DNA from: Moniliella sp. 'wahieum'
Taxonomy: Eukaryota
DNA length: 64,000 nt
Assembly: GCA_003971905.1 (NCBI GenBank)
Contig: RSEE01000009.1
Span: 868,001-932,000 of the forward strand
Direction of reading: 5' to 3'
This document shows positions 11,141 to 53,319 of the stretch, one piece after another. Position 1 is the stretch's first letter. Each line of letters starts with the position of its first letter. A program made the translations under genes and the position numbers. Under the pieces are notes generated by a model that searched no databases, was not told the DNA's origin, and saw only the letters and a program-made list of their open reading frames with translations.

Positions 11141-13169
11141 AGCGGGAGGGGGGTGGGGACGAGTGGGGTAGAAGAAGAGGTGGTGGTGGGAAAAAGAAGC
11201 ATTCGACTTCCGGGTGAGGGCGTTACCGCGTTCCGGGGGTTGACCGGACGCGTGACGGGTGACACTCGTCGGCTCCTGGAACATTTTTCGCCCACGTGCA
11301 CCAAAGTTTCAAATCACCTGGAAGCACTGCCCCAGTGGCTGGGGGATGAAGGTGGGGCTTACCGCTCTCTCGCCGATCTCGTTTATCGATTTCAACGATC
11401 GTTCACCGTTCTCACAGCCCTGACGGCATGGTACCAGTCACGAAGTCACTAGCTAGACACTTCAGGTTTGAAGCTTCAAGCTCTCAAGCTTCAAGCTGCT
11501 TCCGCTGGGGGTCGGTCATGCACGTGTGCTGACCATCGACGAACTCAGAACTCAGTATACTAAGTCGTGGCGGTCCCGGCCAGCCGCGGCCACCCGTTCA
11601 GCTCAGCCCGTGTTACCTGCTGTGGTTTGGAGGAGAAACGGGAGATCATGTCGGTCTGGGCAGAGAACAGCGCCAGTAGCTGGATCGTGTAAGGGGCATA
11701 TAGACAGTGATGTTGATGAGGTCCCATCCTGCTGCTCACCAAGTGGCAGACGAGGCCGATGAGGAGGATCCAGACTGAGACGCTAACGGAGGGGGGCGTG
11801 GCGACACCCGTGCGTCTACTATAGGATCAGAGTCACAAACGTGGAAAGGGTGTGTGGGGCATAATGCATAATGCCTATTGTTGGGATAATTGCGACACTG
11901 GGGACGGAAGTGCTTAAGTATCCATGGGCACACATCCGTCTCTCATTCTTTGTTAAAGAGGCAACATGGGAGGGAACGCACCGGAAGAAGCATGACGATA
12001 AGCGCCGGAGACGATGATGCAATAAAGTAGAGCAAGTCAGACGAAGGAAGCAACAGCAATGATAACTGTACATCTCACAGCTTCGCATATATAGAAGACC
12101 ATGGTAATACTGCAGGTCCAGGTGAGAATGGCTGGGGGACCACCAGTCCTGACGCCTAAGCAGTTATCTCTGGGGAGGGTACTGGGAACTAAGAAGAGAA
12201 ACCGTTCAATGACATGAAACGAATCAAGAAGTACGCATCCTGGGGTAGTACGGGGCTTGCTCAACAATCTGAGACCTAGATGAATCCAAGGCATATAATA
12301 AGAGGTCAGCGCCGCGCTATAAAGGGGGGTCTTCAGTGGATTCCATAGCAGTTTGAGTGCACTTCCAATCGTAGGGAAGAGGTCATGACCAAAGATGGCG
12401 AAGGCAAGGTGACAGCCTTGTGGAAGGCACAGTTCTAGGAAGTAGTAGAGCAAAGGAGACTGCGCCCTTCTGAGATGGTCTATCAATGGGCCAATACGGT
12501 GCGAATTCGCTGAGCCCGCTGGGAAAGCCACCTGTTGAACTGGAACGGTTCGCACTTCCCGAAATGATTGCAGGATCTGAATAGAGAGACTAGTGAACAC
12601 AAGGGATATAAACGCCGGCAGTTAGATATTGCAACTAGTGACACTCTCCCAGCGAGAATTGGTTCGAACAAGAGCTCGGATACATCATACACAACGCATG
12701 ATGAGGCGAAGAGAACGGTCCACAATGCGGACTCCCCGAGGCAAAAGAGAAATTGTCCTCCCTTGCTGTCGCCAGGAATAAAGGGAGACAGTTGACGATC
12801 TGGAATAATGGGCATATAGGGACCCGATCCAAGCAACCCGCACCCTCCGTAGCTCTTTAGAAAAGCAGGAGTATCAGTCGAACATAGTACGGTACAATAG
12901 AATATATACAGTTGCGTCTGCGCCTTATTTCAAACGGCGGATGGGGATCATGCATGTATCGATTATCCTTCTGCCCACACGACCAAGCCTATTTCCGCAT
13001 TCCAGCAGCGTGGGCTCCAGAGAAGTGAGCGTTAGAGACAAGCAGGAGGGGCTCAGTGCGTTCATTAAATCGTGCTATCTAGCCCACACCAATTCACACC
13101 AGTCGTCCCCGAGAGGACTCGTTTTACGTGCACAACTTAGACAGATGCGCTGAGGAAGATGGCGCTCGG

Positions 13170-13673
13170 TTAGAGCTTGGCCTTCTGGGCCTTGAGCACA
13201 GTGTCCAGCTTGGTTGCCAGCATAATGTTCTGTCCAGAGAAAAGCGTCAGCATACTCGAGGGCAGAGAAACGGGATGAGGGAAGCAAGTACGTACACCCT
13301 TGACCTTCAACTTGCCGCTCATGAATGCTTTCTGGCCATTGACCTGCCGTCCGCCATGTCTACAAAGGCTGAGTGGGTCGAGCAAGCGCACACGCATGGG
13401 TTAGTCATCGCATAAGCATACAACATGGCAGGGGTCCACATACTCTCGTCCGACGTGTTGATCGTCACGTCAGCCTTGCCCTTCGCCTTGCCCTCGTAGG
13501 CCTCGCCGACCTTCTTGAGGTCAATGGTATAGACCAGCTCCTTGGAGCCTTTCTTGATGTGCAGCTCAAAGACGCCATTGGTCTTCTTGATGATGTCCTT
13601 CTTGTCTTTCTCGCTGGCAGTCTTGAGACCTCCTGGATCTGGGTGAAGAGTGCTTGGGCTTGAACTCTGACAT
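13170..13673 (-). CDS. Peroxisomal sterol carrier protein 2 (SCP2 / POX18-like lipid transfer protein); introns 13369-13443 and 13230-13295
   Basis: IIKKTNGVFELHIK...YTIDLKKVGEAYEGKAKGKADVTI...NGQKAFMSGKLKVKG|NIMLATKLDTVLK. Ends in the PTS1 tripeptide AKL. Canonical GTATGT/GTACGT donors and CTAAC/CTGAC branch sites. Confidence 0.92.
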
Positions 13674-14559
13674 GGCGGGCAGCGAACACAAGGATGGAGG
13701 TGTTGAAAGTAGACCGAGCCGCAGTCGAGGGCCGGTGTGTGGCCCGTCAGCATTTTTTCAATGTTAACCTTCCCCGACGATTCTCGATTTGAGCTTCAAG
13801 CTTTCAAGCTCTCGGTCATTTCCAGCAGCGATCAATCGCCGCAGAAGGGGCGTCAGCGCATCAGTAACTCTGTGAAGCGGCCCAGAGCAGTCCGAGGCTT
13901 GTGGGGCCGTGGGGGCTGAGCACACCCAGGACAAGCACCCCATGGCGGCAGTGTCCCGCAGCCGCGCGCGATTCACTGCCGCAACAGCGCTTGGAGTTAC
14001 GGCCTTACCGGTTACCGGTTACCCGTTACCGTTACCGGCGTTACCTTGCGTTACTGGGTTAGCGGTTACCATTATTGCCAACGCGCAAATGTCGCGCCTC
14101 CAGTTGACTGAGTACTAGCTAGCTACTGGTTGACTCGCTCTGCCTATCGGTGCAAGCCCCTGCACGTCTCGGCAGAGCCCCATGGTATCATCACCGGTCA
14201 CTGGTCACCGGCCCAGCGCAAGTTCATAGGGAAAACTGTCTGAATATTTCAGGACGAATGGCGGTGGGAAAACGTACGCCGCGCCACTCACCGGTGAGAA
14301 CGCAGCGCTTATACGCCTCCGCTGAGCCTCGCCCTATCAAGAGGCAAATTTCTGTTAGGGGAGCTTACCGCCCAAGGCCGGCCTACTATAGTGCAACTAA
14401 AGAGCCATTATTCGAGGAGTAGAGCTACAGGCAGTAGCAGCTGACAACAAGACGGAGGGTTCGAGGATGGGAGTAGGTCACAGTCGTACGTATCATTGTA
14501 GGACACAAAATGAATAGACAACGAAAGTGGCCACAAAAGGGGTGGGAGGCAATAGAGTA

Positions 14560-14900
14560 AAGCCAACAAGAACGTCGAACATCTCCCAAACTCTGTCCAT
14601 CAGCCGCAAAACTCCAAGCAGGCATACCCTAGAGCCCTATTTGAACACAAAATGGTATTGGTGCTACTATCCGAGAGCTTCGGTCCGACAACACTTCTGC
14701 CACCCACGTAATATCTGCCCGAGAAGCATATGGTCGAGAGGGAAGGGCAACGCAGACTACTCTTATACTATATCGACTCGGATCATCGAGATCATCTTAG
14801 TTTCCACTTCATATTTTGGTGATTGCCATTACAATGAAAAAGCGGGCGGCATGATGCAACTGTGCATGCCTTTGACAGGTTCATTGCACCATACTTTGAG
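14560..14900 (+). mobile_element. Possible highly degenerate Ty1/copia RT-RNase H relic
   Basis: Faint motifs in the expected order: TRTSNISQTLSISR (cf. TRPDI..AV..LSR), YYIDSDH (cf. GYSDSDW), STSYF, AIT-*KS (cf. AISWKS). Confidence 0.25.
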
Positions 14901-15404
14901 GACATTTTTTGTCAAGCCAGCCACGGAAACAGCAGGGACAGAAAGAGGCAGCATGGAGGAAGAGACAACATCGAATTTCTCTTCGTGGGGTTGAAGCGCC
15001 CAGAGATGAAGAACATGAAGCGAAACCCGCGGGTACGCTCTCTTCTTCTGTATACTACAATAGTATCTGCAGAGAACAGGAGCCGCAAAAGGGAGGTGGG
15101 GGGATGGTATAGTGTTTGATCTCGGGCATATATATGCGAATATGGGCGGTTATTGACGGAGAAGAGAGGAGAAAATATAGCGGTTCATATAGTGTGATGT
15201 GTGCAGGGCACAAGCACCGCAGTAGGTGCATCGCAGGTGCGCATATAAAGAGAGATTGTTCGTGTGGAAAGCCGAAAAATGTGGATGAGGGAGATAGGGG
15301 GAAAAACAAACGTCGACAGCCAAGACGTCCCCAGTTTCCTAGGCCACTCTTGCTCACCCTCGCTGCTCCATGATAGTACTGAAGGAGAAACAGGTGGCAG
15401 TGTA

Positions 15405-17144
15405 TCATGGCTTGGGGTTGAAGGTAGGGTGAGTACGGGTGACCATTTGGAGCTGCTGTTCGGACAGGCCCTCGCGGGTATGCAGCTTGCGAATGTGCCG
15501 ATGCGCATCGTTTTTCCGGCTGAAGGCCTCGTTGCACAACGGACACTTGAATGGTCGTGGGCGGTTGGGATTGTGCACGTCCAAGTGTTGACGTAGATTA
15601 GATTTGCGCTCAAACCCGCGCCCGCATGTGGGACACACCCACGGCCTGCCGTATGGATTGGCACGTTCCCCCACCGAAAATGAACCCGTTGACCGAGCGC
15701 GGCAGATAGGTGGGGAGGGCACAAGAGAGGGGTCGGGTTGGCCAAGCGTTTCCATGCTACTCCGCCTCCGGATCAGATGCTCAACCACCTCGTACGAATT
15801 GGGAGGGTAGTGGAAGTACACGCCACCTCCCATCGATCCATCTTGCAAGCCATTGTCCAACTCGCGTCCTGCATTCAGGGCGGACGTAAAGCCAGACACC
15901 CCGTCTTCCCACTTGTTCACCCGGCCCAGGCCAAGAGAGGAAGAACAGGTGGGCACCGACAAGTTTCCTTGTTCTTCCAAGGGCGAGTGGCCTCTTCCAG
16001 TGTGTTGCTGCTCATGAGTGGGAGAGATAAGACCGGTATATGCGACGCGCATGGAGCGGGGTGTGCGGTGGGAAGCAGAGATGTAGAAGGATGGTGATCC
16101 AACAACAGCGCAGGCGCCCTGGGGTTGCCATCGAGTCCGCAACATAGACCGGTGCGGGCATGCCAGTTGGATCAGACCCGATCTGACCCGAAGAGGGTCC
16201 CGCGTCGGAGGAGAGGGCACCCAGAGTAGTGGGCGAAAGCAAGTCCCCCAAGTCGTAGGTGCTAAGCGGGGACGTGGAAGTGGGTGCCAAAGCGGGCCGA
16301 AAGATATCTGATTCGCCCCAGTATCTTCATTGTGCCCGAGGGAGATTGGGCGCAATGGAGTGCTCGGACGATCCATGCGGAAATCCACTTGATCCATAGT
16401 GCCAGTAACGCTTGGCTCTCCATAGGCCGAAATATGATGCTCCAACTGGCCCACTACCGGGGGTAGATGCAGCTGCACAGAGGAGGTATCTAAAGAGCTT
16501 GGGCTTCGGTCGGGTATGGTTGATGAAGGAGGCGGGGGGAGGGGTGGGAGGCTGGATACAAGCGACGTGTTGGGCCGGTCCATTCGATGAGGGGAGGAGA
16601 AAAGGTGGTTCATGCGCAAGGAAACAGACGATGAAGCTTGAAGATCAGATGCGGGAGCGGGAGATTCGTCGTGGTGGGGCACAGCGGTAACGTGCTGGAA
16701 GTTGTAAGGCGGCCAGCCGGTCGTCATACGAACAGTTGGTGGCGTCTGCAGCGGGTTGCGGTACTGGTCATCGGCATGGCGGGCCAGGCGCGGACCGACA
16801 TGGAGAGTCGTCGAGGGAGTAACACGTGCGCCAAAGATGGCAGAAGGAGTAGAAATGGGGAAAAAATTTGGTTCTTGGCTGGGGGCGGCACAGACTGCTC
16901 CCGAGGCGAATAGCGTGCTTTGTTGAGACGGACTCGGAAGGTCCTCCGACTGAGCAATAGACAGGAAGGATGAAGAGGAGGAGGAAGTCGTAGTGAGAGC
17001 TCCCAAGCTGGCCAACTCGACCCCACCGTCAATCGGCCCCGGTTGAGAAGTGATGGGCGTAGGAGGAGTGGCAATGGCGCTGGCCAACAGCAAGTCGACT
17101 AGGAGGTTGTCTTCCTCTACCCCGGGGAACATTTGCTCCGGCAT
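15405..17144 (-). CDS. C2H2 zinc-finger transcription factor (two C-terminal fingers, long Ser/Pro-rich N-terminus)
   Basis: ORF 15405-17771 ends RPWVCPTCGRGFERKSNLRQHLDVHNPNRPRPFKCPLCNEAFSRKNDAHRHIRKLH. Probable start MPEQMFPG at 17144. Confidence 0.85.
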   Translation of the reverse strand: MPEQMFPGVEEDNLLVDLLLASAIATPPTPITSQPGPIDGGVELASLGALTTTSSSSSSFLSIAQSEDLPSPSQQSTLFASGAVCAAPSQEPNFFPISTPSAIFGARVTPSTTLHVGPRLARHADDQYRNPLQTPPTVRMTTGWPPYNFQHVTAVPHHDESPAPASDLQASSSVSLRMNHLFSSPHRMDRPNTSLVSSLPPLPPPPSSTIPDRSPSSLDTSSVQLHLPPVVGQLEHHISAYGEPSVTGTMDQVDFRMDRPSTPLRPISLGHNEDTGANQISFGPLWHPLPRPRLAPTTWGTCFRPLLWVPSPPTRDPLRVRSGLIQLACPHRSMLRTRWQPQGACAVVGSPSFYISASHRTPRSMRVAYTGLISPTHEQQHTGRGHSPLEEQGNLSVPTCSSSLGLGRVNKWEDGVSGFTSALNAGRELDNGLQDGSMGGGVYFHYPPNSYEVVEHLIRRRSSMETLGQPDPSLVPSPPICRARSTGSFSVGERANPYGRPWVCPTCGRGFERKSNLRQHLDVHNPNRPRPFKCPLCNEAFSRKNDAHRHIRKLHTREGLSEQQLQMVTRTHPTFNPKP

Positions 17145-18400
17145 GAATTGTAGGGGCGGCGAAATGGAGATGCGAGGCCTGGAAGGAGGCGAATGATGAT
17201 GAAAAGGGCGGGGAAGCGCCAGCAACTGGAGCAGCAGCAACAGTCGTAGTAGTAGAAGAAGACGTGTTGTACATGGTGGTGTTGGCGGGAGAAGGGGCCA
17301 GGCGAGGCCCAGGAATAGGGGCCGATGGGCAAGGGGTAAGAGGGGTGTAGGCCGTTGGCGGATGTTCGGCCGTTGGCTGCGGCTGATTGTGTGGTCACGT
17401 CCGAGAAGTGTGTGTCGGGGTGAGAGAGAGAAGGGGGGCTGGATATTATTTGAGGTGGCAGCCCCCCTCCACCAGGGCAGCCCGACGTAGCAATAGCTGG
17501 GCTGGCAAGCGGCCCTGGCTGGATGACTGGCTGGAAGCTGAGAAGCGTGTCGCGGAGGCACACCAGCTCTCGTATCAGCCACATCTTCTGATCCCTGTGA
17601 TCCATCGCATCCATGTGCTGTCTCTCCAGTCCTGATGCCGGATACCTTCGACCTCATCGTACACAGCCCTACGCAGTGTCTGCCCTCTGGCGCCCCGGTA
17701 ACAGGAACGGGAACGGGGGCGCAATGTAGAAAGCCCAGATGCAGTATGGGAGAACGAGGGAGCGCATACATACAGACATGTTCTTGGACACTTGGATCTT
17801 AGAGCTTTCTGGGAGGGTCCCTTGGGCGTTTTGCAGTGGTCAGACAGAGCTGCTCAGGGCCCACTGTCGGAAGTGCTTGTCCTCTGGTGCCGCGGGGCGT
17901 CAGTGTCGCCAGTCCGTAGCATGCTGCATGCGTCACCGTCCAACTGGCTCCACCTGATGCCTGAAGCCTAGTGTCTATTCTGCGTTGTATTCTGTGCTGT
18001 GCCTGGCTGTCTACGACAAGTGACTCGATGCCCACGAATCACTGGTTCACCGTTTCACCGGCCACCAGGGTAATAGGCATTACATACTCGGCGTAAAGGA
18101 AGCGCCGGCGCCGTCACATGTCACACACTATGTCATCGGCCATCCGGCACAAGATCTGACATGTGAGACAACACCCCAGAGACTGTGGGGCCTACCCCGG
18201 CCCACCGCCTGGTCGCCCTCAGCCGGGTTCAGCGCACGTTCAGCTCTCTCTGAACATCCGAGGCGGTAGAGAGGCTGACCATTGCCCACACTGGCACGTT
18301 GAGAATACACTCGCAGTACATACTTCTTGCACGCCTGGATTTCGCAAGAAAGACCCGCGTGTCCAGCGCGAGCGTAACTAGAAGACCCCTTTCTAGGTCC

Positions 18401-18470
18401 CTTGAAGCTTCAAGCTTCAAGCTTCATCGTTGGATGCGTGGAACGTGAAGCTTGAAGCTTGAGTACTGAA
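18401..18470. repeat. CTT(G/C)AAG heptamer array (inverted plus direct duplications)
   Basis: CTTGAAG CTTCAAG CTTCAAG CTTCA at 18401-18426; GTGAAG CTTGAAG CTTGAG at 18445-18463. Confidence 0.85.
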
Positions 18471-20819
18471 AAACTGAGTGCGAATCCCAGCGCGATCTGA
18501 GACTTCTGATGTGGGATTGAGCTTGGGCTCGGGGGTTATCGAGTTATCGATTATCGACCGGTTAGCCGAGCACCTGTGATCGATGATCAGCGTCTCGGAG
18601 TGTGAATATGCATGCACAGAAGCCGAGCGGCTGCCCCTACTCATAGGCCTGCTGTCATGATCATCATGTCCATATGCGATAGTCCTCGGAGGGTGAGAGG
18701 AAGGCGCCTGAATGGGTTGACGCGTGACGGTAACATCTGTGACATTCATATGTGGGTTGTTGTTTTGGGAGTGCCCGCCAGCGTTGTTTGTGTACCGAAC
18801 AAACCGCATCTCTGGATACAAAGACATCGTACATACTCCCCCGTACTCGATCATGGTTACGCAATGCGCAATACCAGAGATGCGTTATCATATTCTGCAC
18901 AATCAAACGCCTCCATTCCCTCTATGCAAAGCAGCTCTTTTTGGTCCACACACCCTCTCTCTAGCAGCGGCCCTATCCCCTATGGCGTGGACGTCGAGCC
19001 GAAGCTGTGGACGGCAAGCAAGTAGCCTTTACTATGCCAAGCGTATTGGAAACGAGATGTCTCAAGCGGGCAGAAGCAATATTCGAGTCTCTACGTCATA
19101 ACAAAAAAGACGCCACCTATTAGGTTTGGCCGCCAAAAGGCTCTTCAAATTTCAAATGCGATACACCATGGGAGTCACAAGGGCTGTGTTTTTGAAATGT
19201 AGAACATCTTCGCTGGCTGCATAGCCTTTTGCCATTGGACAATTACCACGACGACAAACTCCGGCCTACTCCGGCTCCCCCCCACACACTCGACGTCATG
19301 ACGTCGTTAGTACTCCGCATCCCCGAACGATTCGCGGTGTTTTGGTGTCGTTGCTCGGGTCTCGGCGAATGACTCGATGACGCAGATTGCGCTTGGCGAG
19401 CCCGCCCCGCAGCGCCACACGCACACCCACAACACCCACCCACACACCTTTTCTTTTTTCGGCCCCCCGTATTCAGAGCAAAAGAGTATAGGCAGCAACC
19501 CTGTTTGGATGCACAATAACTCGCTACAGTTGATGCTGCAGCAGCCTCGGCCAAGAACAGTCGATCGCCATGGTTTTAGGTATCGAGTCATTGCAACCCA
19601 TACGTTCAGAGGCATGTTGCTGTGATTGAGACAATGTCCCCCCGCCTCGCTAGTTTGTGGAGATTGAAGCAAATTGACTTGAGCAAGTGCATTACAGCCT
19701 ACCCTCACAGGCCCATGGGAAGAAAGAGGACTGAAATGTCGGAATACTGATAACATAACCAAAACCTGTTCACGAGGCCCAAACCTCGATCGGTTCTTGT
19801 GGAGACTCAAAAAGCTGATGATGTATATATAGCCTTCCAAACCCACCCCGCGGATACTAGAGTTGTAATAGGTACTCCTCTCCTCCACACTTTTTGCAGT
19901 TTCTACTTCTCTTTTTCCCGCCACCAATTGTCCTTCCGTTCCACATTCTCACTTGATATGGCTTCCTCACATTGGCCCTGGAGGGATGCTTACGTCTGTA
20001 CTCTAGCCCTTTTTCGGTCTTTCTTTCCTCTTCGAACCCCAGCCATTGTTTGAGACGAGTGCGAGAGTGCATTAGCACTGCACTAGAGAGAGTTCTTTTT
20101 CATGTCAGAGGATTGTTGCTCGTGCGTTTGGCCAAGGTCTCTTCAGTCCCTCATCAGGTCTGGGAGCTCCTGTTTTCTCGCTTATCTTCACTGTTCGATA
20201 GTGACAATGTCCCGATGTGGCGAATGGCACGGAGGGGTGGGGGGCACACAAGTTAATAGTTAGGACCACAGCCTTAGCCTCGCGTGGTTTTGTTTTGTTG
20301 ATGACGTCGACATGGCCAATACATTTCCCCTTTCACAGCATATGCTTTTACTCGTCACGCTTATCCCGTTACCATTGCAGGATCTCGCTGCATCATAGTT
20401 TTGGACTTTGGTAGAAGAAACCAGCCGGACTAGATATCTGTGTGTGCTGTGGTGACGCCATTGACCTCTATCTGCTCTCTTCAGTGGGGGTGAGAGGCCG
20501 GCCGCGATGAGGATTTTTGTTCGCTATTTACAATAGTAAACGACGTTGAACGTTCAGTTGAACACCTGTACTCTGCCCGTTTCTACACTCCCGGCGGCGT
20601 ATCCAGCGCGCCCCCCTGAGTCTAAGCAGGTCTAAGTTCTGAAAAGCTTCAACTCGCAGGTTCGGCAAAACGCAACACTTGTCGACATGTGACGTAGCCA
20701 CTATAGTAGTGACCTGTAGCGAGTGACACTGAGTACTGAGTATACAGCCAATGGTTGTGCTGTGCACTCACACTACTGCTACTAAGTACCAAGTACTTCC
20801 TGAGTGCTGTGGCCAAGAG

Positions 20820-21320
20820 TGCTCCGCAGGCTCAGCCTGAGCCGCTGACTTGGACAGCTGACATGTGATGCATGTGATGCATGTGACATGTGACATGCGG
20901 CTTGATGCATGATGCATGATCGGTGATCCATGACACTGACGGATTGGCAAGGTGTCAGCTGCATGTCAGCAGTCAGTAACCGTGACTAGTGACTTGTGGT
21001 ACATAGTGGCATGTCACATGCGACGTGCAGCATATGCGTATGACATGAATGACAGGATGGATGATCGATGATGCCTGATGCATGACGATCGATGACATCG
21101 AAGACATGTGACATCAATGACGTGATGACATGTGCCATGCGACATGCGACATCTGCAAGCTGTCGGCGCTCAGGCGCTCAGGGCGCTCAGTTTCGGCGCC
21201 GCGCTCAGCACGCTCAGCACTCCGTTGCCCCTCCGACCGGAGACAGAGCACGTCGGAATCGAGAAAAAGCAGCAAGTATGTATATGACAGGTGTCGAATG
21301 TCGTCTACGTCATGCATCAT
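20820..21320. repeat. Dense low-complexity patch of palindromic micro-duplications (TGTGACA, CATGATG, GATGATC, GCTCAG units)
   Basis: TGTGACA x2 at 20882-20895, CATGATG CATGAT at 20908-20920, GCGCTCAG units at 21166-21190. Confidence 0.75.
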
Positions 21321-22029
21321 GCACATCCATCGTGCCATGTATGTACACAAAGTGGGTGTTCAAACGTTCCACTACGTTCACGTACGTTACACGTAACTGC
21401 AGCCCAGAATTGATGCAGCAGGATGCTGGATGTGGAGCATGATGTTTTTTCTCTCACACCAACAAATAATAAGAGGCAGCCCCAAACTATTGCGCAACAA
21501 AAAAGCCATCGCACCTCGCTAATGCTGATGCACTGATGGTCTTCACCACACCCGGCGGCGGAGAGACGTACACACACAGGGCTTAACAATACTTGGTACG
21601 TAGTGCGCTTGTTACTCTCCGCGTGGGCTTGCGCGACCCCCATCCGAGCCCCTGCGCCTCAGATCGCTCAGTCACTCAGGGGCCTCTTTCTTCCAAGGTC
21701 TCCTTGGTTTCATATGGCCTGTGGCCTCCATCCTGAGGTCACCGGTCAGGCCTGAGGGCCTGAGGGCCTGACGCGTTACGCGCCATGCCTAATGTATCAC
21801 GTATCACGCGCCACATATCACGCCCCTTCCTTGCGGCGTGTGTGGTAGCATCAGCGCAAAAAAGCTCTTCAAAAGCTTCATCGACCATCACTCTCTCCTT
21901 CATTAATGTTGATTCGCTCTGGACCTGACTGATATATTTTGACAGTGCCAGGTGGCATGATTTGTCAGAAACTGCAGCTGAGGTCAGGAAAAACGCCCCA
22001 ATTTTATGTAGTGGTATATATAGGCGAAC

Positions 22030-22200
22030 CCTTAAATGTTGTACAGCATCATGTGATTATGGGAATCCAGTAGGATAATCCGACCACTGTCTATTCTGAT
22101 ATACTATAGTTATTGGCTCTAGAATTAGGCGTATATTGTATGGATCTTGCCCGCGTAGGCCCTCATTTTAACTTTGGAGACCTGCTGCATTCTCTTCTGC
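22030..22200 (+). mobile_element. Possible degenerate Ty1/copia RNase H C-terminal relic
   Basis: 22059 onward reads MGIQ*DNPTTVYSD (cf. copia LGI.Q..PT.IY.DN) within a locally AT-richer patch. Confidence 0.3.
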
Positions 22201-22716
22201 TCTGCGTCCAGATCAATCTTTTGTTGCATAATGTATATACTTGACTGTGGTGCACTTTATTAACAACGCACAACAAGCAGTCGGAAAAGGTCCCACATAC
22301 TGCTGCATACACCCCGCGAGGGGCTATACCGAAAACTCAAGGGCATTATATCCTGAGGGCTTGGGCTCCGGATCATCGATCCCGATCAAGTCTGAGATTC
22401 TCAGCCGAGCCCGGTCTGCCGGGCCAGGCCCCAGGCCTTAGTAATTAGTACTGAGACTCAGTACAATACTCAGTCTTAAAGTTTAAGGCCTTAGGCCTTA
22501 TAGAGCCTCTCAGCCCCTCAGGCTGGGCGTCAGGCTGAGGACTCCGCCTCCATGCGACACAGCTGAGATGTGAAATGAGTTTCAGAATAGATCTATTCCA
22601 TAAATGAGTCGATACCGAGGTGGCTTTCTTGGCTTTTGAGATTTGAGAATACTACAGGTACGTACTTGAAGCTTGAAGCTTAATAAAGCTCGGATGTACG
22701 CTCCTAATATAAGCGC

Positions 22717-22771
22717 TGACTAGTGACTAGTGACTATAGTGACTATAGTGACTATAGTGACTATAGTGACT
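22717..22771. repeat. Tandem array of 7-bp (AGTGACT) then 9-bp (TAGTGACTA x4 plus partial) odd-palindromic units
   Basis: tgac tagtgac tagtgacta tagtgacta tagtgacta tagtgacta tagtgact read directly. Confidence 0.95.
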
Positions 22772-34915: not shown

Positions 34916-35558
34916 GGTGGTGGGGGTCGAGTCGATGTCCGAGCGAGCAGGCGAAGAGCGAGGGCGGCAGGGGAGGAGCAGCGAAACAGCCGCCGTGCGC
35001 CCGGATTTTTTTCCCCTCTGCTGCCCGCCGGCCACACTGCCCGCATGCGGCGGCGGCGCGTGGGCATGCTTCGGGGGCGGAATGGCCGACGACGCCCGGC
35101 GGAACAGGCGGCGTGGCCGAGCAGCGGGCGCATCGGGCAGGCTGCCCAAAGTGAAAGTTGTAGTCAGCGTGTGCACGGCGCGTGGTGTGTGATGTGCACG
35201 GTGTGATGTTGGGTGGCAGAAGGCGGGCGGCTGGTGGTGACCGGTGACGGTGACCGGTGAGGGTGCCAGTGAAGCTAGTGAAGCTAGTGACGGGTGGCAG
35301 GCACGGGAGGCGGGGCACGGGGGCGCTGTGCTCCACCTGAGGCGGCGCGGCGGCTCCCCGAGCAGGTGGGAAGGCGTGGCGGGCGCTGGCTGCCGTGCGG
35401 CGCCGTGGCACACGCGAGCGACACAGACCCTTCGCCCGCCTGGGCCACAGTCTGTCCCCAGCGGCGCGCAAGCTGGATTCGGTCGATTCAGGATTGCCGT
35501 TGCGATTGATACGCCGCCCCCGCTCCTCTGCCCTACCACCCGCTCCTCCTCCGCTGCC

Positions 35559-36934
<1,376 letters not shown>

Positions 36935-39013: not shown

Positions 39014-42000
39014 AGTCGGTGAGGCGCTGAGCAGTCCTGGTTTCACGCGTCTTCCGGAAGCGGTGGCCGTGGTGGTGAGCAAGAAGATGTGCGTTTGTTC
39101 TGAACCACCCTAGGGCTGTGTGTGGGTAGGCTTGGCCACTGCAGGGGTTGAATGTGCCTTGATCCGGCGCGACTGCCACGGTGAAGCTTGAAGACGAGAA
39201 GGCCCGAAAAGCTGATGCACTGAGGGTGTGCCAGCCGGCACACATCGTTTCATCACCCCCATCCCACCGCAGTCTCGCCTGGGTCCGCTCGAGTCTGATG
39301 CCGTCTTGCTCCGCTGCTTACGCGGGCCACAGGCACCTGCGAAATCATATCACACAGCCGGCAGCCTGCCGAACAAGGCCGGTGTTGGCAATGGTATCAA
39401 CGTCAACACAGCGTCAAGGTTCAAAGCGTTTAACGTGAACACATCGAACATGATTCTACTCCGCCGAGCAGGGCGTAATGCGCGTAATGGGAGGTGGAGC
39501 CTGGTGGAGCACACAGGAGTGAGAAGCTGCATCCCACCACTGCCACCAACATGTCCCAATCTCATTTTCTTTTACCTCGGGTTCAACGTATTCAAAACGT
39601 TCAGATGTCGTCAGAAGAGTATATAGCCACAGAGTGTGGAAACTAGAAGCCGATTGCTGGCCTCGATGGTCACCGTGTTCGTTGGGCCTGACTATGTCAT
39701 GGAAGTTGATCACAGACTTAATAATCACAACTTGCTCGAGGTTGTCCACATGTATATGTAAGCTAGTTAAACGTTAACCGTTAACAAGGCGCTCTAAGAT
39801 CTAAGCGCTATAATTATGGTACGAAACAGGAAGAGAGTCGGCGTATTAGCGCAGAGCGTAGCGGTACTACCACACAATACCTGACTAACTGACGGCAAAA
39901 CGTGATGCATGATTGCCCCAACAGAGTGGGAACGAGCGAGAGGCTTCTGACCACGAACGCAAAGGTGAACGAAATCTCCAGAGGAAGAGTATGTCGCCTG
40001 GTGTCGCTCGTGACGCGTGACGTCGAAACGCGTGAAGCTTGAAGAGAAGAAAACCAGAAGGAGAGGGAGAAGCGACAACAGAGAAGAGCACACAAATTGT
40101 GACCGTGTGTGATGGATCGAAACGGCGCACGATCGCGAGGACAACGCAATACTAGCGTAGTGCCGACGCATCATGGATGATCTAGATGATCGATGAGGCG
40201 ACCTGAGGAAGAGTCTGAGTATACTATAGTGCACAATCACTAATCATCGATATATCGATCATCTCCAAGTTAATTAAGTCACAGCAGTACGAGCTCCACA
40301 GTGTCAGAGCGAACCACGGTTCACTTGTGCGGATGCAGACGCAGATATCAGAAGGTGAAAACAGACGGATGATCAATGAAGAGAAGAAAAGGTGGAACCC
40401 ATTGGACAGGGAACGGATTCCGGGCGAAAGCCCGGACCCGTGCCGTCCACAAAAGCCCGGTACGAGTGTGAGAGATAGTGATACTTCGAAATACTACACA
40501 GCGTTACCTGATGTTACAGTCATGCAAGTCATGATACACAGCCTTTTACTGACAGTACTGACCGGTGACCGGTCACCTCTCTCTCATATCAAAACCATGT
40601 CAGTCCCATTAATAGACTAATGGGGAAAGGTTTCACTTCTAATAGTACTAGAGACTAATAGCACAGTAGGACTGTCACATGTCAGACCTCAGGACCTCAG
40701 GGGCAACTAATCCTCCATTTGCTGTTGCGGATAATACTATCATCCGCGAAAACAGGTGTGGATGTGCCGGAGCACCGCCGACGCTGAGTCACGTTTTGGT
40801 CGATTGACAAAGAGTGACTATAGAAGCTTTGATGACCTCCCCCGCAACAGGCAACCGTCGTCGATATAGTCACTCTGCAGTCATATATGGAAAAAAATCT
40901 TCTACTACCATACGAGGAGACCACCGGGCCTACGGCCCGGTCAGCTGGGGCCCGTAGCCAGCGTTCCCCCTTCGCCACCTTAGCCACCGTTCCCCCCTTC
41001 GCCACCGTAGTTATAATATCACCGATACGCGCTGGCTGCGGGTGGCTGGGAACGTGGCACCGGTCGGCACGTGCCTATGACGTAAAAGATGCACGGCGGA
41101 TACTTTTGCGTATGACATAGAGTGTCCCAGCCTTAAGCTCTGTCAATGGAATGCACACAACAGAGATGGCAGGAGGCAAAGAAATCCACCAACAACCCTA
41201 CTGCCCCCCGACCTGAACCCTACTGCTCCCCACCTGCACGTGACGGGGGGGGGCTGCGCCAACCATCGGCATATGACAGAGTCGCGTCGACGCGTCCCTC
41301 CACTCCCTTAAAATGCCCCTGCCCGTGCTCACCGCCGGTGCCCCATTGCCGCACCAACGACCACACGGCACACGGTGCCCCTTCAATCCACGCCCACGGT
41401 TGTGCCCCTACTGCCGTCGAGGGCTCGATCCATGTAACGTGAATTACGACGACCCTGTCGCAGGCGGGCCCTGCCAGGTGGGTCACTCAGGTTGGGGGGT
41501 ACAATCCCTTAGGTGAAGGACGACTCACGGTAGTTTCGGGCTTGGGCTACTTGGTGGATCCGAGCGAGGGGGAGAAGCCTTGGACGTGAAGCCGAGGCGG
41601 CTGCGCGCGTGGCAAGGCGTATACGCCGGCTGAAGGGTAGTAACGTGTCTGAAGCCTCCGGGGCTGAGACGGGTAGATGCAGTGGAGCGGACAGACACTG
41701 CCAGGGCTGAGGCAGGGCAGTGGCTGTGAAAGGAACCCACGCGACATGCTATGGTACGGGGAACCGACGCGGCTGAAGGAAAAGGCTCGCGCGATTGGGC
41801 ACATGGAAAAGCGTGGAGGACGAGTTGGATGATGAAAGATGATGCAGCTAAGTGGAGACGAGATGTTGCCTGTATTACTGAATCAGTTGGCTGGAAACAT
41901 GCAGGAGTTGGACAAGAAAGGTGGGAAACGACGAGAATGGAAGGTGGGATAAAGGATCCCCACTAATCGATGATGCTGACTGTTGGTTGGCCCCTTTTTG

Positions 42001-42449
42001 GTACCCCCTTCTGTCTAAGCCCCATCGCACTGGCATAGATGTTGACAGAGCGAATTAGACGAAGTTATAGAGTGCGACTTGGGAGCGTTCGCGATCCTAT
42101 GGATCAGCTGCAAAGCAGCCTTCAGACAAGGCGTGAAGGCAAAGTGGTGAGCCACAAGTCTTCAAGCAACAGCTGAATTGAAGGGAAGGAACAGGAGAGA
42201 GAGAAGGGAGATGAAGCGAGCAGGGCGTACGCGCCCTGCGAGCGGAATCTTCCGCCCGGCTAAGTGAGCGTCACCGATCCACGAGGGCCGTGCAGGGGAA
42301 ACCAGCACTGCCCTCCAATAGAAGCAAGCGAAGGCTGCGAAGGCACTAAGAGTGTCATCCGATAGCACTTCCTCGTATTATATGTTGGGGGGCAGGAAAG
42401 GTGTTAGACTTCCACGTGGGCAGTCCCATCAATAACTGCATCAATGCCT

Positions 42450-43800
42450 ATACAACCGATCGGATGGTCTATACGGCGAAGTGTTGTTCATCATGCCGAA
42501 AGGATTCGTCAAACAGTTCACAAAAACAAAAGGGAGAAGACACGCTGATTTGACTTGTTGGGCCGGGGCTCTCATCATATGCAGTATTCTCGAGTCCCCG
42601 TGTTCCGTGTGCCCGTACTATGCCCATATGCCCAAAAAGAGGAAGCCAAGTTCAAGTTGCCCTGAGGAGGAACAATGTGCGAAAAGGGAAACATTATATG
42701 AACCGACCACATAGGAGGATGCTGACTGCAGGGGGAGAAGAGTGTAAAGAACTTTGATGTGACCCTGTGAAAAGGCTCTCGCGCATCGTGTGGTATTATA
42801 TATACTACACGAGAGATGTCAAGTATGTCCCACGCCTTGCCGAGACCACCGAGTTCTGATGAGGACCTTGTTGCAGTGTTCTCGTCGATGAAGAGCTCAA
42901 ACGGACGATGATTGGTCTTACAGTCACTTTTGCTTAAGATTTTGAAGAAGGGGTTGCGTATGGCAAAAGAGGGCAGCATGAGAAAAAGACAAGCAGACAC
43001 TATCGGCTTGTTATCCCAAAAAAAGAAGAGCCTTACGATGACCAGTGGAAGTTGCTGCACAGTCGTCACCACCACAAGCAAGTGCCGCCACCTCAGGTGA
43101 TAATGAGGGCCACTAAAGTTGGCGTGTGTACTCGAGGGAAAGGGATATGCTCCATGGATTTTGTTGTGAGAGATGTAACGGTCACTGCGCAGTCCTCAAC
43201 AGCAGAGACGCAGACAACTCGCCCACACGCGACAGGTGAACTTCAGACGGTGTAGTCCTGAGGAGTGGCAACTCGCTAAGAGTCAGGTCCTTTTGGCCGT
43301 GAGGTGCGGTAACTGGGGCCATAACCGAGACGGGACAATGTAAGGATCGGTGTTCATTATACTACTAGTATGGACACATCCTGCTGTAAGCGAGAAACTC
43401 AACGATATCGCTGTAAGCGACGTGGGCTCAAAAGCCTAAGAAAATGGGAGGAGATGAGATGGCGCTATTTCAAGAGAAGAGAGCCCGACACAAGGCAGCC
43501 GAAGGGGCAAAATCACCCACAAGGTGTATCGGAGCGTTTGAATAGAAGTCGCATGGCGACTTGACAAAACGGAGCCCGTCACCTAATGACGGGGAGGATA
43601 TCCTTAGGTGAGCCGCGCTTGTTGGTGCGAACGTGTTGGGACTTTGGAGCCCCATAACAAAGGTATATTACAGCGATAAACGGCGAAGATACAAAAAAGA
43701 TGTACCTGTGTGAAGAAACCCCCACGAAGTGACAGGAGTTCCATCCCTACAGCGAGCGTGGCGTAAGGCATGATCTAAAACCAGACGTGCTTGCGATTAT
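42450..43800 (+). mobile_element. Decayed Ty1/copia LTR-retrotransposon gag-pol relic (protease to integrase)
   Basis: Motif remnants in copia order across frames: CSSCRK (zinc knuckle?), GA/SHHM (cf. LDSGASHHM, ~42570), RDVKYVPRLA (cf. DVLYVP.L, ~42815), LLHSRHHH (cf. LWHRRLGH, 43052), VCTRGK, HATGELQTV*S (cf. RAT.PLELVHSD), QGVSERLNRS (cf. QNGVSERLNRT, ~43520), LR*AALVGANV..WSP. Confidence 0.6.
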
Positions 43801-44993
43801 AGTAACCAGTAATCGATATTCCACAGTGCGTGCGTCAGTGGGCCGCAAACGGGACGTCAGAATCCGTGCCAGAAAAGTGGAGCATGCGTCTGGATAGCGA
43901 CATCCGTGCGCTCTGACTGCTGAGCTATCTCAGCGTTATGAGACCTGAAGTCCTGATGGTCCTCGACGGTGTTGCAATAACTGCATGGCGGTGGTAGTGG
44001 TCTAAGCAGCAATGCCTACAGAGAAACAACAAGCAGCTAGTCACCACCAGGGTGGCTACTAGGCTACGGAACAAGGAAAACAGAAGACAGAAAACAATGG
44101 AGTTTCTATTCTTATATTACGCCTGAGGAGGAACAGAAGGGACGTTGGCCAAAACACACGAGCTACCCGCGGTGGCTAAACACCGTGCGCTCGTCGTAGC
44201 CTAGCAGACTCCCTACATGATAGAGCAGTATAACCCTCGGTACTCGCCCCCTGCGGGGCCTCCCAGCGAGTGACAACACGCCTGCGATGTTCTTGCGCTT
44301 AGGACGCCTGAGAGAGGGGGAAGCTCTGATGATCGATGACTGTGATGACACGGTATAGATAGGCAAGTAGCGGGGCAGGGTATAGTTTAGGTAGAGTGTG
44401 AAATACCACATGGATCGCGAGTGTCTCGGCAATAAACTTTGTGGATTGTCTGAGATATCTGTTGAGACGTTATGGGGTCTTCCGTGGATACTGTCGTATT
44501 ATTAGTTGATGGAGCCGAACTGGATTCGCGCGCATGATAATTTATATTCGCCCCATAGCAAGACGTAATACCACAGTCATATGCTGTATTGCATCAACAA
44601 CATGCCCGCGGCCCGAGCCACACAGTGGCAACTGCGATTGCTGCTAGGGACACCTCCATGCTCATAGCGTCACCTCCATTTCGCATTCATAGTTTGCGTA
44701 ACTTAAAACGGGAAGAGAAAGAAACGCTGCCTATATCTCAGGATTGCTCTTATCTATGAGCGTACGTAGGCATTGCTCTATTACCAACAACAGGAATCCA
44801 CTTGCTCTTTACTAACGAGTTGGGGCTTAATATGAAGCTTTTAAGTGACCCTATATAGTGATCGAGAGATCAAGTTGGCAACTAGAGAAGAGACTCTTAT
44901 AGCATGTGTTGGCTATCTGATACACATTTTGTTCTGCCGAACACACTTCGGGTGGCAAGCGAGATTGTTATCGCGACATCGATGAAGAGAGTA

Positions 44994-45000
44994 ACTGAGT

Positions 45001-45032
<32 letters not shown>
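44994..45032. repeat. ACTGAG(T/C) heptamer tandem array (5 copies plus partial)
   Basis: ACTGAGT ACTGAGC ACTGAGC ACTGAGC ACTGAGC ACTG. Confidence 0.95.
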
Positions 45033-46064
45033 TATTTGAGTAGTGAGCTGTAGTAGTGACTCTAGCGACTAGTGACTAGTGAGGCATGATGATGCCGAAG
45101 AGACTTGAAGCTTTTGGAGCTTGAAGCTATTGAAGAAGACTGAAAACAGTTTTATGAGAGGCTCAACGTTTAAAGTGGTTGACATGTTGACACCTACGCC
45201 ATCAACCCCCGACGGACATTCATTTGCATTCTGCGATGCGAGGCCGAAGAAGAGATTTTCGATGGGCCTTATTTCCATCTCCTAAAAACATAGGTGAGCG
45301 TGAAAAGCATATGGCCACAGGTGGTTGGAGTGTATTTTATAACAAGATTCAATATTCAACGTATACATTTTGAGCACCTTCGTTGGTCTCACAGTCTCAA
45401 CAGTAACTCAATACAGGATTCATATTCACATGTGACAGTATGCTCTCTGTTCTCTCTTTGATCCAGCGTTCAACATGACGTGCTCGCACTTTGCTGCAAT
45501 GACTAGTATCTAACTCTATTCAAAACAAAACAAAACGTCCGCAGAAACTCACTGAGTACATCTACATCATGCATCAATAGTCACTAGAGCTAGTCACTAG
45601 TCACTTTCGGGCTAAAGCATGTTTGCATTTTTGATGCATGTCAGTTGGCGGCGGAACCACATGGGCCCGATGCAGTCGTCTGGTGGGAGACGGGCGGGGG
45701 GGGGAACATGAGATCTGAGACCTGAGACCTGGGATATGAGAACTCTCGGACTAGCCCGTAGCAGGGTACCACCAGATTTGCTTTATCGATACGCGTCCTC
45801 TCCCTCAGAGATGCAGATGGCTTGTTGAAACGTCTCGTCTTCATGATACGGAAGACATCCCGTTTGTTCAACGTTGTTCAGGCCCGCCTTAGGCCTCATG
45901 GCCTCAGCAGAAATAAAGCAGCAGAGTCGTTGGATCATTAATCATTGATAGAAGTGGTTTCTGGACTGGTGGTTATCGGTACCGAGAGATTATCGAGTAT
46001 CTAAAAGATTCCAAGAACCATGTCAACAATTAAATTAGGCGTGAGATCGATGTGAGAGAGATAG

Positions 46065-46192
46065 CATGGGGACATGAGGACATGGGGCATGGGGACATGG
46101 GGCATGGGGGCATGGCGACATGGACACATGGAGACGTGGGGACATGGGGACAGGTGACCCGGTGACATGGAGACATGGAGACGGGGACAGGG
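46065..46192 (+). repeat. Degenerate (GGGG/GGAG)ACAT 7-8-bp microsatellite
   Basis: catggggacatgaggacatggggcatggggacatggggcatgggggcatggcgacatggacacatggagacgtggggacatggggacagg... Confidence 0.9.
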
Positions 46193-46573
46193 TGTGATGG
46201 TGGTTTCACGGTTACCGGTTAGCCACTGCCGTGACGCGTGACGCGTGAATATCAATCTTCGTCCGACAAGTCACGCGGTCACCCGGTCACGCGTCGACGG
46301 CCCCATATGTCACATGTCACATCCGCCGATGCGCCCATGTCCCATCCTTCACATGTGATGCATGTGACTAGGAACTCACGCGGACACACGAGGTCTACAG
46401 GTCCCATGCATCACAGGGGTTACCGGTTAACGTTTAAAATTTAACGTTTAACGGGCAAGCCACGTCTGTGAAGCAAGCATATGCTCTCCAGAAATCCACA
46501 TACTCTCGAGGCTTTTTGTCCCACGCGTCTGTCCCCAGGGCCTGAGCAGTGCCTGAGCGCGCCCAGGCCTGTG

Positions 46574-46682
46574 CCTTGGGCCTCAGGCCCCTCAGGCAGC
46601 CGCGGTGCTGAGGCTCTGAGGGTCCTTGGGCCTTAGGCCCCTCCGGCAGCCGCGGTGCTGAGGCGCTGAGGGTCCTTGGGCC
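46574..46682. repeat. 50-bp tandem direct repeat (2 copies plus 9 bp)
   Basis: CCTTGGGCC recurs at 46574, 46624 and 46674. The two units differ at only about 3 positions. Confidence 0.95.
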
Positions 46683-48489
46683 TGGCCATCGAATCAGGGT
46701 CAGCTTCAGGGGGGCTGCAAATGTACGTAACGCGCAAGCACTAAGCTCTAAGCGCTAAGCGCTAAATACAGTAATGCGGCAAGCCGGCCTGCCCCGGAGT
46801 GCCGCTGTGTGCCTTCTTAGTGCCGTCCTGTGCCGCCTTGCCGCCTCAGGGCTGCCTCCGTGCCGCAACAGCCGCAACGCCGGCGCCCGGCCGGCGCCGC
46901 AACCAGTCTTGGCATTTGCCTCATTTGATTTCGCCCTGTCTCGCCTCCGATCAGACGGAGGCTTTAGTGCGCATCAGTCCGAGGCTCCAGTCCAGAGTCC
47001 AGTGGCGCTGTCCGCGTTTAGCGCTTCGCCTGCAGCATGAATCATGTGCACATGCGCCTGCGCCACAATCTACCCTGCTTCAAGCTTCAATGGAGCAACT
47101 GCCGAAAACTGATAGCGCCTATAGGAGCAGAGAGGCGCCAAGTTTGAGCGGCTGAGCCTCGAGATATCTTTAGAGCTTGAGAGCGTGAGCGCGCGAGCGT
47201 TCTGGCTGCACGGACTGCTTCCATGTGCTCTGCTAGTGCGTGCAAAGGTGGACGTTGAACGTTTGAGCTTGAATCGCCCTGCCGGGGCGGATGCCGATGA
47301 TCGAGGACTGGGACCGCATGAATAATCGAGGATGTCAAGGTCTGAGACCTATTTGCGTCTCGGAAAGCCGGTGCGCTTGGCAAACCCGCAGCGGAGCGAC
47401 CATCATGCATCGTACACACCAACCATCGATCATCTCGATCATCAGGCGGGCGGCGGGGGTGTTGCCATCATGTCATGCTCATGTGTGTGATTGCATGATG
47501 TTCGAGGATTAATGCGCGCATTAATGAGGCATCTTCCGCCGGTCAAATGCGCTATCGAGAGCGGGGACGGACGCACAACGAGAGCGGCAAGTGAGCGTCA
47601 GTTCACACTCAAGATGAACGAACGGAGGGGTGCTAAGTAACTAACTCAGTACAGAGTGAGTACGCAGTACAGAGTGTACTGATGTACTGTGTAGTCTCAC
47701 GACCGAGCGCGCGCTGAGCCAGCCTAAGCTTTTCACCAACCAGCCAAGTGTGGCGTTTCGTGGAAAAAACGAGGGCTTCGTCCGTTTATCAAGCTTCAAG
47801 CTAAGCGTCACTAGCGTCACCACGATGGAATGACGATTATCGATCATTGGTCAACTACTGACTGGCTAGTCACTAGTCACTGTCACCTGCAGCACTGCTA
47901 CCGCTGCTGTGTGAGGTGGATTAGGCGTTGGCCTGCGTTCAATTGCTGGGGGGAGGGAGATTCAGAATAAGAGGTGCTGCGGATAGATGCTCTGCCCCTT
48001 GCGAGACACTCGTATGGCGGCTGTTCGCAGTGCGCAAGCACTTGGTACCCTCAGTAATACTCAGCTGAGCGCCCTGTGGCTCCGCTCCGAGGCTCAGACC
48101 CAGTCTTGTGCCTTTCCGACAATGTGTGTAGGATACGACCCCCTGATAGTGTACGTACACCTCACCTCGCCAAACACCTTATCCCACCCACTATGCACTG
48201 TGCCACTGCAAAGGAGAAGAAGGACGCAGTGCGGCGTTCGAGTCTTGTGCCGCACACACAGCGCGCCCAGTATCAGAGACATCCAGTTTCTATAGTGCTA
48301 GTTCAGCGTAGGCATCGGCTTAAAGATGCCGCCACTCCCTCGTCCGCCACGGAGGTTCGTCTTTCGTCCCCGCCTCGCTCAACGCACACTCCCTTCTCTG
48401 TCCTTTCACCTCCTGGACCTTCCTCATCCTCATCGCTGCGCGCTCCCAATCCCACAGTGCGCACAATCCAACCAGTGTTGTTGGTCTAG

Positions 48490-52990: not shown

Positions 52991-53319
52991 CCTCATCACA
53001 TATAACGAAGTTGTATAGGAGAAGAGAGGAGATCATCGGACATGCATGCCCACATGGTGGCGGGCAGGTGCTAGATAACCGCCCAGTATGGTGAGTTGTG
53101 TACACTATTACTACAACATGCAAGTGATACTTACACCACGCCTCTCTCGTCGGGAACCACACTAATATATATGCAAAAAACGGTAAGCTTCTGTGTAGTG
53201 TTGTGTGTGTGTGGCTGCAGTGTATATAAAGATCATGCAGTATATATAAAGATCATCAGAGCCTGCTATTATCTCCATGTAATAAGATTCAGGGAAAAAA
53301 ACGGCCGTGCCACTACTGT

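Follow-up and report, generated by a model that had tools for sequence, protein, structure and literature searches.

A stereotyped T-N-A-anchored mutational scar in the intergenic DNA of Moniliella sp. 'wahieum'

The non-coding DNA of a 64-kb stretch of the Moniliella sp. 'wahieum' genome (contig RSEE01000009.1, positions 868,001 to 932,000; hereafter the window) carries a real, strongly non-random and highly stereotyped mutational scar. An earlier note on this DNA had seen the pattern but mis-phased it, taking the recurrent unit to be a duplicated 7-bp palindrome centred on T-N-A. The recurrent feature is a TNA followed by a 4-bp palindrome and a second TNA, both with the same N, and all four N are used. 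In its commonest form it is the 12-mer xyTNA-y'x'-xyTNA, where y'x' is the reverse complement of xy, or rc(xy): a direct repeat of five nucleotides (nt) around the reverse complement of its own first two bases, with a net gain of 7 bp. The pattern points to an unusual, possibly undescribed process of DNA breakage and copying. We consider it about evenly balanced that these are the scars of a recurrent, strand-asymmetric templated micro-insertion (a fold-back or template switch) anchored on TNA, in which case, and with the same reserve, they would be neither functional motifs nor 7-bp target-site duplications (TSDs). All inference here draws on this single 64-kb sequence from one genome.

Anatomy and specificity of the scar

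The arrangement of TNA, palindromic tetramer and TNA occurs 101 times in 86 loci, 74 of which hold one such filler, nine hold two and three hold three. Among the 73 loci in which the TNAs share the same N, the maximal run with a period of 7 measures 12 nt in 20, 13 nt in 12, 14 nt in 10 and 10–11 nt in 11, and the periodic extension on either side of the core is bimodal, at 0 or 2 nt. The modal run is therefore 12 nt and not the 14 nt of a duplicated heptamer. Of the 66 loci that hold two TNAs, the pattern runs on into the flank for at least 2 nt on one side only in 45, on both sides in nine and on neither in 12, and the filler matches a flank in 54 of the 66. The symmetric 14-mer xyTNAy'x'.xyTNAy'x' is found at just one of these 66 loci which, together with the modal run of 12 nt, speaks against the earlier proposal that the heptamer is itself a 7-bp TSD.

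The two junctions of the unit differ. In all 81 of the 12-mers rc(xy) adjoins xy, as palindromic nucleotides copied from the flank. Among spacers that depart from the standard length, 17 of 34 with 3 nt and 23 of 58 with 4 nt still have rc(xy) at their end, the extra bases sitting between the first TNA and rc(xy); the junction between rc(xy) and xy is therefore exact and the one after the first TNA is loose. Outside runs, single palindromic heptamers are enriched only 1.4–1.6-fold (110 observed for T-N-A centres versus 69.8 expected, with other centres at expectation), and single occurrences of TNA with a palindromic tetramer number 87 versus 75 expected. Because single heptamers are barely enriched outside runs, the palindrome is a consequence of the event and not its precursor. 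Folding predicts no structure for the elementary 12-mers (0 kcal/mol), and only arrays of at least 2.5 units fold to hairpins with TNA triloops at -5 to -11 kcal/mol. The longest perfect array (44994–45032) is non-palindromic and without a fold, thus expansion needs no hairpin.

Decayed copies appear to be present as well. The spacers of same-N TNA-4-TNA pairs have both base pairs complementary in 80 cases, one in 47 and neither in 26, a series that would be expected if perfect scars had decayed against a background of chance pairs. When the 7-nt unit is removed iteratively, 66 events collapse, equal to 462 bp.

The preference for T-N-A can be read directly from the counts. In pairs of identical triplets separated by four bases, the spacer is palindromic in 42 of 80 cases for TGA, 20 of 39 for TCA, nine of 16 for TAA and nine of 18 for TTA, compared with at most four cases for each of the other 60 triplets (81 of 1677 when pooled). 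For TNA pairs a spacer length of 4 forms a sharp peak, and the spacer is palindromic in 80 of 153 pairs with the same N, 12 of 36 with complementary N and nine of 49 with another N. As control DNA we used 622 kb of unrelated metagenome contigs (80 loci obtained via S-adenosylmethionine synthetase, best identity 75%, mostly bacterial and too distant for their intergenic DNA to be aligned as orthologous), in which the spacer is palindromic in 63 of 744 TNA-4-TNA pairs and the 12-mer is found 13 times per 622 kb. The general form F-TNA-rc(F)-F-TNA was counted on both strands of the window with expectations from Markov-3 simulations. The observed and simulated numbers are 136 versus 109 for an F of 0 nt, 9 versus 4.4 for 1 nt, 81 versus 0.4 for 2 nt and 7 versus 0.0 for 3 nt. 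With F at 2 nt, the centres ANT, CNG and GNC give 2, 3 and 2 cases versus 81 for TNA, a chance level that upholds the earlier suggestion of one site-specific process acting on TNA. The T before the first N is needed (81 cases with it versus 12 without), as is the A, since any other base at its position gives at most six cases versus 81. The outer dinucleotide had been described as freely varying. This stands insofar as the events draw on 15 of the 16 palindromic tetramers that can be formed, but arms made of A and T only are under-represented (4 of 73 events versus 19% of available sites), from which pairing seems to matter to the event.

The tandem heptamers from which the earlier note started are all present. 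Its 17 cited loci (14 spans and three approximate positions) could be recovered with an offset of at most one base, at 22665. Tandem runs that are perfect over two or more copies number 242 for period 4, 73 for period 5, 56 for period 6, 48 for period 7, 15 for period 8, 10 for period 9 and 3 for period 10. With k as the number of matched bases past one period, period 7 exceeds Markov-2 simulations at each run length tabulated (93 versus 35.5 at k=5, 36 versus 10.4 at k=6, 18 versus 2.9 at k=7, i.e., 14 nt, and 10 versus 0.8 at k=8). An odd-palindrome rotation exists in 32 of the 48 period-7 runs and has a T-N-A centre in 30 of the 32, the exceptions lying at 328 and 39772. The shared centre holds likewise for in-phase abutting heptamers with the same arms, all 15 pairs being T-N-A centred and none having another centre. 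Copies do occur both direct and inverted, as reported, but the inverted ones are a small minority (two pairs versus 13 direct).

Distribution, orientation and individual loci

The scars are intergenic and regionally concentrated, with 78 of the 86 loci in the 19.9 kb of five intergenic blocks and an event density of ~3–4 per kb of intergenic DNA. Signature 12-mers number 45 in the left segment, 33 in the right block and 3 in the remaining 38.6 kb, and a scan of the window from 48.3 to 60 kb, including the intergenic DNA at 52.0–54.3 kb, found no loci. The regions are as follows (no strand assigned).

9145..25341, left signature-rich segment, with intergenic blocks at 9145–9884, 11223–12040, 13796–15408 and 17799–25341; 45 of 81 12-mers
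39110..48324, right signature-rich intergenic block; 33 of 81 12-mers
52000..54300, internal contrast: ordinary intergenic DNA without the signature, with TATA-like boxes

The loci are clustered, the median nearest-neighbour distance being 43 nt versus 89 nt for random TNA sites, and are placed largely upstream of genes. The density of TGA and TCA in the rich blocks is 1.6–1.9 times the mononucleotide expectation; together with the decayed copies this excess suggests many more events than the 66 counted. That the arrays avoid coding sequence, as the earlier note had judged by eye, is confirmed by the finding of only 4 of 32 palindromic arrays inside open frames of at least 150 amino acids (aa), versus 58% of window positions. 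One strict 12-mer, CT-TCA-AG-CT-TCA at 16632–16643 (minus strand), lies inside a C2H2 zinc-finger open frame (15408–17798, minus strand). A +7 event there would shift the frame, thus this 12-mer is either a chance occurrence or situated in a part of the frame that is non-coding.

For orientation, loci with the matching flank on the left were scored as R and those with it on the right as L, giving 49 oriented loci between 9291 and 47789. There are 1 R and 10 L up to 21 kb, 8 R and 6 L from 21 to 25.3 kb, and 17 R and 7 L from 35 kb, a gradient with a Mann-Whitney p of 0.007 and, for the outer thirds under a post hoc split, a Fisher p of 0.0009. The shift parallels the direction of neighbouring genes, with minus-strand genes on the left and the plus-strand gene at 48.3 kb on the right. 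Such a gradient would be expected of an error in one-strand synthesis and not of a symmetric double-strand cut, and we regard it as suggestive only.

Representative loci, from elementary events to arrays, are listed here.

21737..21748, plus strand, elementary event GG-TCA-CC-GG-TCA (xyTNA, rc(xy), xyTNA without further periodic extension); 0 kcal/mol alone
23425..23436, plus strand, elementary event TG-TGA-CA-TG-TGA, 12-mer form
40185..40196, plus strand, elementary event GA-TGA-TC-GA-TGA, 12-mer form
18718..18729, minus strand, elementary event CG-TCA-CG-CG-TCA as read on that strand, 12-mer form
46230..46248, plus strand, CG-TGA-CGCG-TGA-CGCG-TGA, two successive events at one site; hairpin of -5 kcal/mol
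14005..14023, plus strand, array TTA-CCGG-TTA-CCGG-TTA-CC
18401..18469, plus strand, opposed arrays (CTTCAAG)n and (CTTGAAG)n, then GTAC-TGA; long hairpin, -21.6 kcal/mol, z -7.2
20859..20920, plus strand, TGA-CATG and TGA-TGCA units with periods 7 and 9
22710..22771, plus strand, array beginning TAA-GCGC-TGA-CTAG, with a switch from CTAG (period 7) to CTATAG (period 9)
35236..35290, plus strand, arrays of the GGTGACC type and of AGTGAAGCT, lying between the divergent genes for eIF3L and a protein kinase
40564..40577, plus strand, GGTGACC.GGTCACC, a perfect 14-bp palindrome and one of only two inverted in-phase pairs
44994..45032, plus strand, ACTGAGT, then ACTGAGC 4.5 times; unit one change from a palindrome, no hairpin, longest perfect array

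The opposed arrays at 18401–18469 lie 20 nt apart, form a stem of 17 bp or more and sit upstream of the zinc-finger gene. Within 22728–22771 the palindrome CTAG gained two central bases to become CTATAG, after which the lengthened unit was repeated 4.9 times. The array at 44994–45032 clearly grew by ordinary slippage after its unit had lost palindromy. Two other repeats lie in the right block (46065–46189 and 46574–46683): CATGGGGA in an array of ~15 copies, and a 50-bp unit present 2.2 times with 95% identity. The two 50-bp copies differ by substitutions only, with no 7-bp steps.

Coding DNA was judged by open-frame length and Pfam matches, as a self-trained coding model separated genes poorly and was dropped. 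The window has open frames matching RhoGEF, S-adenosylmethionine synthetase, SCP2, C2H2 zinc-finger, myotubularin, deoxyhypusine synthase, glucosidase II beta, eIF3L (Paf67), protein kinase, Stealth protein and C1-domain protein families. By its protein matches the window is eukaryotic and comes from a basidiomycete, probably one of the Ustilaginomycotina. The glucosidase II beta frame is 43–48% identical to proteins of Ustilaginomycotina (Tilletiaria, Meira, Violaceomyces, Ceraceosorus, Sporisorium) and has two further protein matches at 81% and 76%; the S-adenosylmethionine synthetase, at 79–80% identity to many Basidiomycota, is not discriminating. The latter gene is split at 10672–10718 into two overlapping open frames, with ~46 nt between the matches to its N-terminal and central domains, which fits a short intron better than a frameshift introduced in assembly. 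C-rich and hexamer or decamer repeats (CCCAAG, TGGGAAGCAG, GGCTCA) found in GC-rich open frames at 400–740, 35719–35772, 59494–59626 and 60045–60184 are probably coding low-complexity sequence without relation to the TNA scars. Scans of the window found no Rfam family and no tRNA.

Mechanism and rival explanations

In the fold-back reading that we favour, a site xyTNA would become xyTNA y'x' xyTNA, each event adding exactly 7 bp. A 3' end terminating in xyTNA would peel off its template, turn back around the self-complementary T..A and copy y and x of its own strand. Synthesis at the base of the frayed stretch would then return to the original template and re-copy xyTNA, leaving the seven extra bases as a small hairpin loop-out that the following round of replication would fix. 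The 3' end at TNA could be supplied by a nick or a stall, possibly enzyme-made, and we treat an enzyme-made nick at TNA as a live sub-hypothesis. Because each event would make a new TNA, events would recur at one place and form arrays, on which slippage and point changes would act afterwards. The anatomy needs a direct re-copy of five bases, an inverted copy of two bases and no input from the other side, and a one-sided fold-back is the simplest process that gives exactly this. An inverted copy joined to a direct re-copy, with a suggestive strand asymmetry, is also what would be expected of template-switch insertion. The nick and snap-back templated repair that the earlier note had offered as one candidate thus fits the product, in which 5 nt are copied directly and 2 nt in inverted form. 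We infer that the change is an insertion, and the order of the steps and the source of the 3' end are put forward on the same footing.

Several observations weigh against this account. Fold-back would be expected at any short inverted repeat and with variable length, whereas the events are found at TNA only and at one arm length (81 cases with F at 2 nt versus 9 and 7 at 1 and 3 nt). It should serve CNG, GNC and ANT equally, and yet only TNA is used, so the site must be set by some further factor, perhaps an enzyme. With an inverted copy of exactly 2 nt in nearly every case, the events are more stereotyped than those published for template switching. Pairing of T with A across N would leave a loop of one base, a turn that is implausible on steric grounds, and the 12-mers fold at 0 kcal/mol. 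The process is regionally patchy and not uniform, the intergenic DNA at 52.0–54.3 kb being without events. The runs test on orientation is not significant for the 49 loci and the split of the gradient was made post hoc. The direction of change (insertion versus loss) and the recency of the events would both have to be read from one sequence. The fold-back model does not account for the restriction to T-N-A, for the constant 2-nt turn or for the patchy distribution. A more speculative idea, which we advance tentatively and think rather unlikely, is that this lineage has an undescribed T-N-A-specific nicking or hairpin-forming activity, for example a domesticated PIF/Harbinger-type DDE nuclease. 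It would write 7-bp units upstream of genes, propagate itself via the new TNA targets, and build and diversify intergenic DNA in 7-bp quanta with no transposon left behind.

Other chemistries predict products that can be counted in the window. The form xyTNA-rc(xy)-TNA is at chance (6 observed versus 5.5 simulated), and the plain 5-nt duplication xyTNA-xyTNA (8 versus 5.2) and TNATNA (136 versus 109) are at or near chance. A mirror type, xyTNA-rc(NA)-xyTNA, was seen 7 times versus 0.3 simulated, but three of the seven are strict loci in which xy equals NA (40185, 44328, 45565) and the remaining four are assumed to be the same coincidence. The two-sided product occurs twice versus 0.03 simulated, and abutting TNA heptamers with different arms occur twice versus ~1.6 expected by our own estimate. 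We accordingly rejected a 3-nt stagger with fill-in, which predicts TNATNA; a 5-nt stagger with fill-in, which predicts xyTNAxyTNA; opening of a two-sided hairpin, given just two cases of its product; and TNA-loop hairpins in both flanks, which predict the abutting heptamers with different arms. Tc1-like overhang pairing was rejected as well since it would need direct arms and the arms here are inverted.

The strongest competing idea is that of footprints left as a cut-and-paste transposon repeatedly inserted and excised, be it a 7-bp TSD, a 3-bp TNA TSD of PIF/Harbinger type with remnants of the element ends, or a hAT-like hairpin footprint. Much of the pattern invites it. T-N-A with any N is the exact target of some PIF/Harbinger-superfamily groups, and two identical TNAs flanking a filler, with all four N represented, are what a 3-bp TNA or TWA duplication would leave. 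A TSD followed by two bases, two inverted bases and a TSD is a known form of Stowaway footprint in excerpts of PMC1925063, and hAT footprints are described as palindromic copies of flanking DNA in those of PMC4561436. The clustering of the loci (43 versus 89 nt) and their position largely upstream of genes would suit mobile elements too. We nevertheless consider transposon footprints unlikely. A symmetric 14-mer is left at 1 of 66 loci only, and a filler that follows the flank in 54 of 66 and takes 15 of 16 tetramers is templated by the flank and does not come from element ends. PIF/Harbinger excision, according to parts of PMC4561436, is normally precise or else keeps both TSDs, while TNATNA is seen just 136 times versus 109. 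The mirror hairpin and two-sided products were judged absent (7 and 2 cases). The element itself was also looked for, as the earlier note had proposed, and TIR, repeat and Pfam searches of the window returned neither TNA-flanked elements with terminal inverted repeats (TIRs) nor a transposase. The search for TIR pairs bounded by TNA gave four hits in the window, none convincing (three array-derived and one weak); a reversed-sequence control of this search is invalid, because TNA reads ANT once reversed. No dispersed or inverted repeat family was found in the window beyond low-complexity DNA, and no transposase or reverse-transcriptase domain was matched by Pfam in 253 open reading frames (141 of at least 130 aa and 112 of 70–129 aa from intergenic blocks).

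Ordinary microsatellite-type slippage, helped by nascent-strand hairpins of the palindromic heptamers, has in its favour the hairpins with TNA triloops that arrays form from 2.5 units upwards (-5 to -11 kcal/mol), the growth of some arrays to 3–5 units and the array at 44994–45032, which plainly expanded in this way. As the origin of the scars we think it very unlikely. Slippage of a 7-mer predicts runs of at least 14 nt, while the mode is 12 and runs of less than two units predominate, and from pre-existing palindromic heptamers one would expect the symmetric 14-mer, a rare form here. Single heptamers show hardly any enrichment, the 12-mers are without structure, the longest perfect array is non-palindromic, and hairpin stability gives no preference for T-N-A over A-N-T, C-N-G or G-N-C. 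Nor is any short unit affected, as slippage would have it, for 30 of 49 period-7 runs of at least 14 nt are T-N-A palindromes. Selected cis-elements of promoters or untranslated regions, acting as binding sites for proteins or as hairpins in DNA or RNA, would explain the intergenic position, largely upstream of genes, and some of the hexamers formed by tetramer plus flank, e.g., ACGCGT, are presumably equal to known boxes. We give this idea very little weight in turn: a tetramer that varies over 15 of 16 types leaves no conserved base-specific protein contact, the elementary unit has no fold, the series of 80 perfect, 47 one-pair and 26 no-pair spacers looks like neutral decay, and other intergenic DNA is without the signature. 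An artefact of sequencing, amplification or assembly is harder still to credit and we regard it as highly improbable, since the scars are missing from coding DNA, where the frames are uninterrupted and align with Pfam families over their whole length. The scars are also site-specific, are limited to particular blocks and include decayed copies, which are not expected of an artefact.

Significance and comparison with known systems

If the fold-back reading is true, an appreciable part of the intergenic DNA of this fungus is the work of one very stereotyped mutational reaction, with at least 66 events or 462 bp in this window. Since the scars sit upstream of genes, the reaction would be a steady source of promoter variation. 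It would also offer a clean natural signature for fold-back and template-switch mutagenesis, which is otherwise known from repair mutants and tumours, where the events are rare and heterogeneous, and would pose the question of what sets the T-N-A specificity and the fixed 2-nt turn. No earlier description of the pattern was found in the open-access literature searched.

The closest likeness is to rad27-delta yeast, in which insertions of the type 'palindrome extension plus amplification' consist of an inverted copy of just-made bases followed by re-copying of the same stretch after two template switches, as a stalled nascent strand folds back and returns (excerpts of PMC5677150). In that mutant, again according to those excerpts, the events are rare, variable in length and seeded by pre-existing inverted repeats at arbitrary sequences, whereas those in the fungus have a fixed 5 + 2 nt, are tied to T-N-A and reach ~3–4 per kb of intergenic DNA in a wild genome. 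Fold-back insertions of 5–34 bp at double-strand breaks are comparable in being very short inverted templated insertions, and since one end synthesises and the other is end-joined they have one exact and one loose junction; they differ in needing longer inverted microhomology and a large loop and in having no 5-nt direct repeat, and no site specificity is reported in the parts of the source available (PMC11724301).

Among transposons, the PIF/Harbinger (PHIS) elements are the only enzyme class we found with a T-N-A target of any N. NuwaII of this superfamily has the target TNA between C and G and is found in fungi (PMC4482050, in part), and mPing tolerates TTA, TAA, TCA and TGA targets (PMC4561436, in part); a 3-nt stagger and a palindromic context add to the likeness in the same excerpts. 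Their excision is precise or leaves TNATNA, as described in the excerpts of PMC4561436, whereas the window has a flank-templated filler and no element, TIR or transposase. Footprints of hAT elements (Ac/Ds) resemble the scars in the short palindromic, flank-copied additions between two direct copies, but theirs involve 8-bp duplications, both flanks and heterogeneous products, unlike the 5-nt, one-sided and uniform outcome seen here (PMC4561436, in part). Tc1/mariner and Stowaway elements leave a TSD, a few bases, a few more bases and a TSD, with the inner bases mutually complementary, as in the Stowaway example TA-CT..AG-TA (PMC1925063, in part). According to the same excerpts, those inner bases come from the element ends and are constant within a family, and the TSD is TA.

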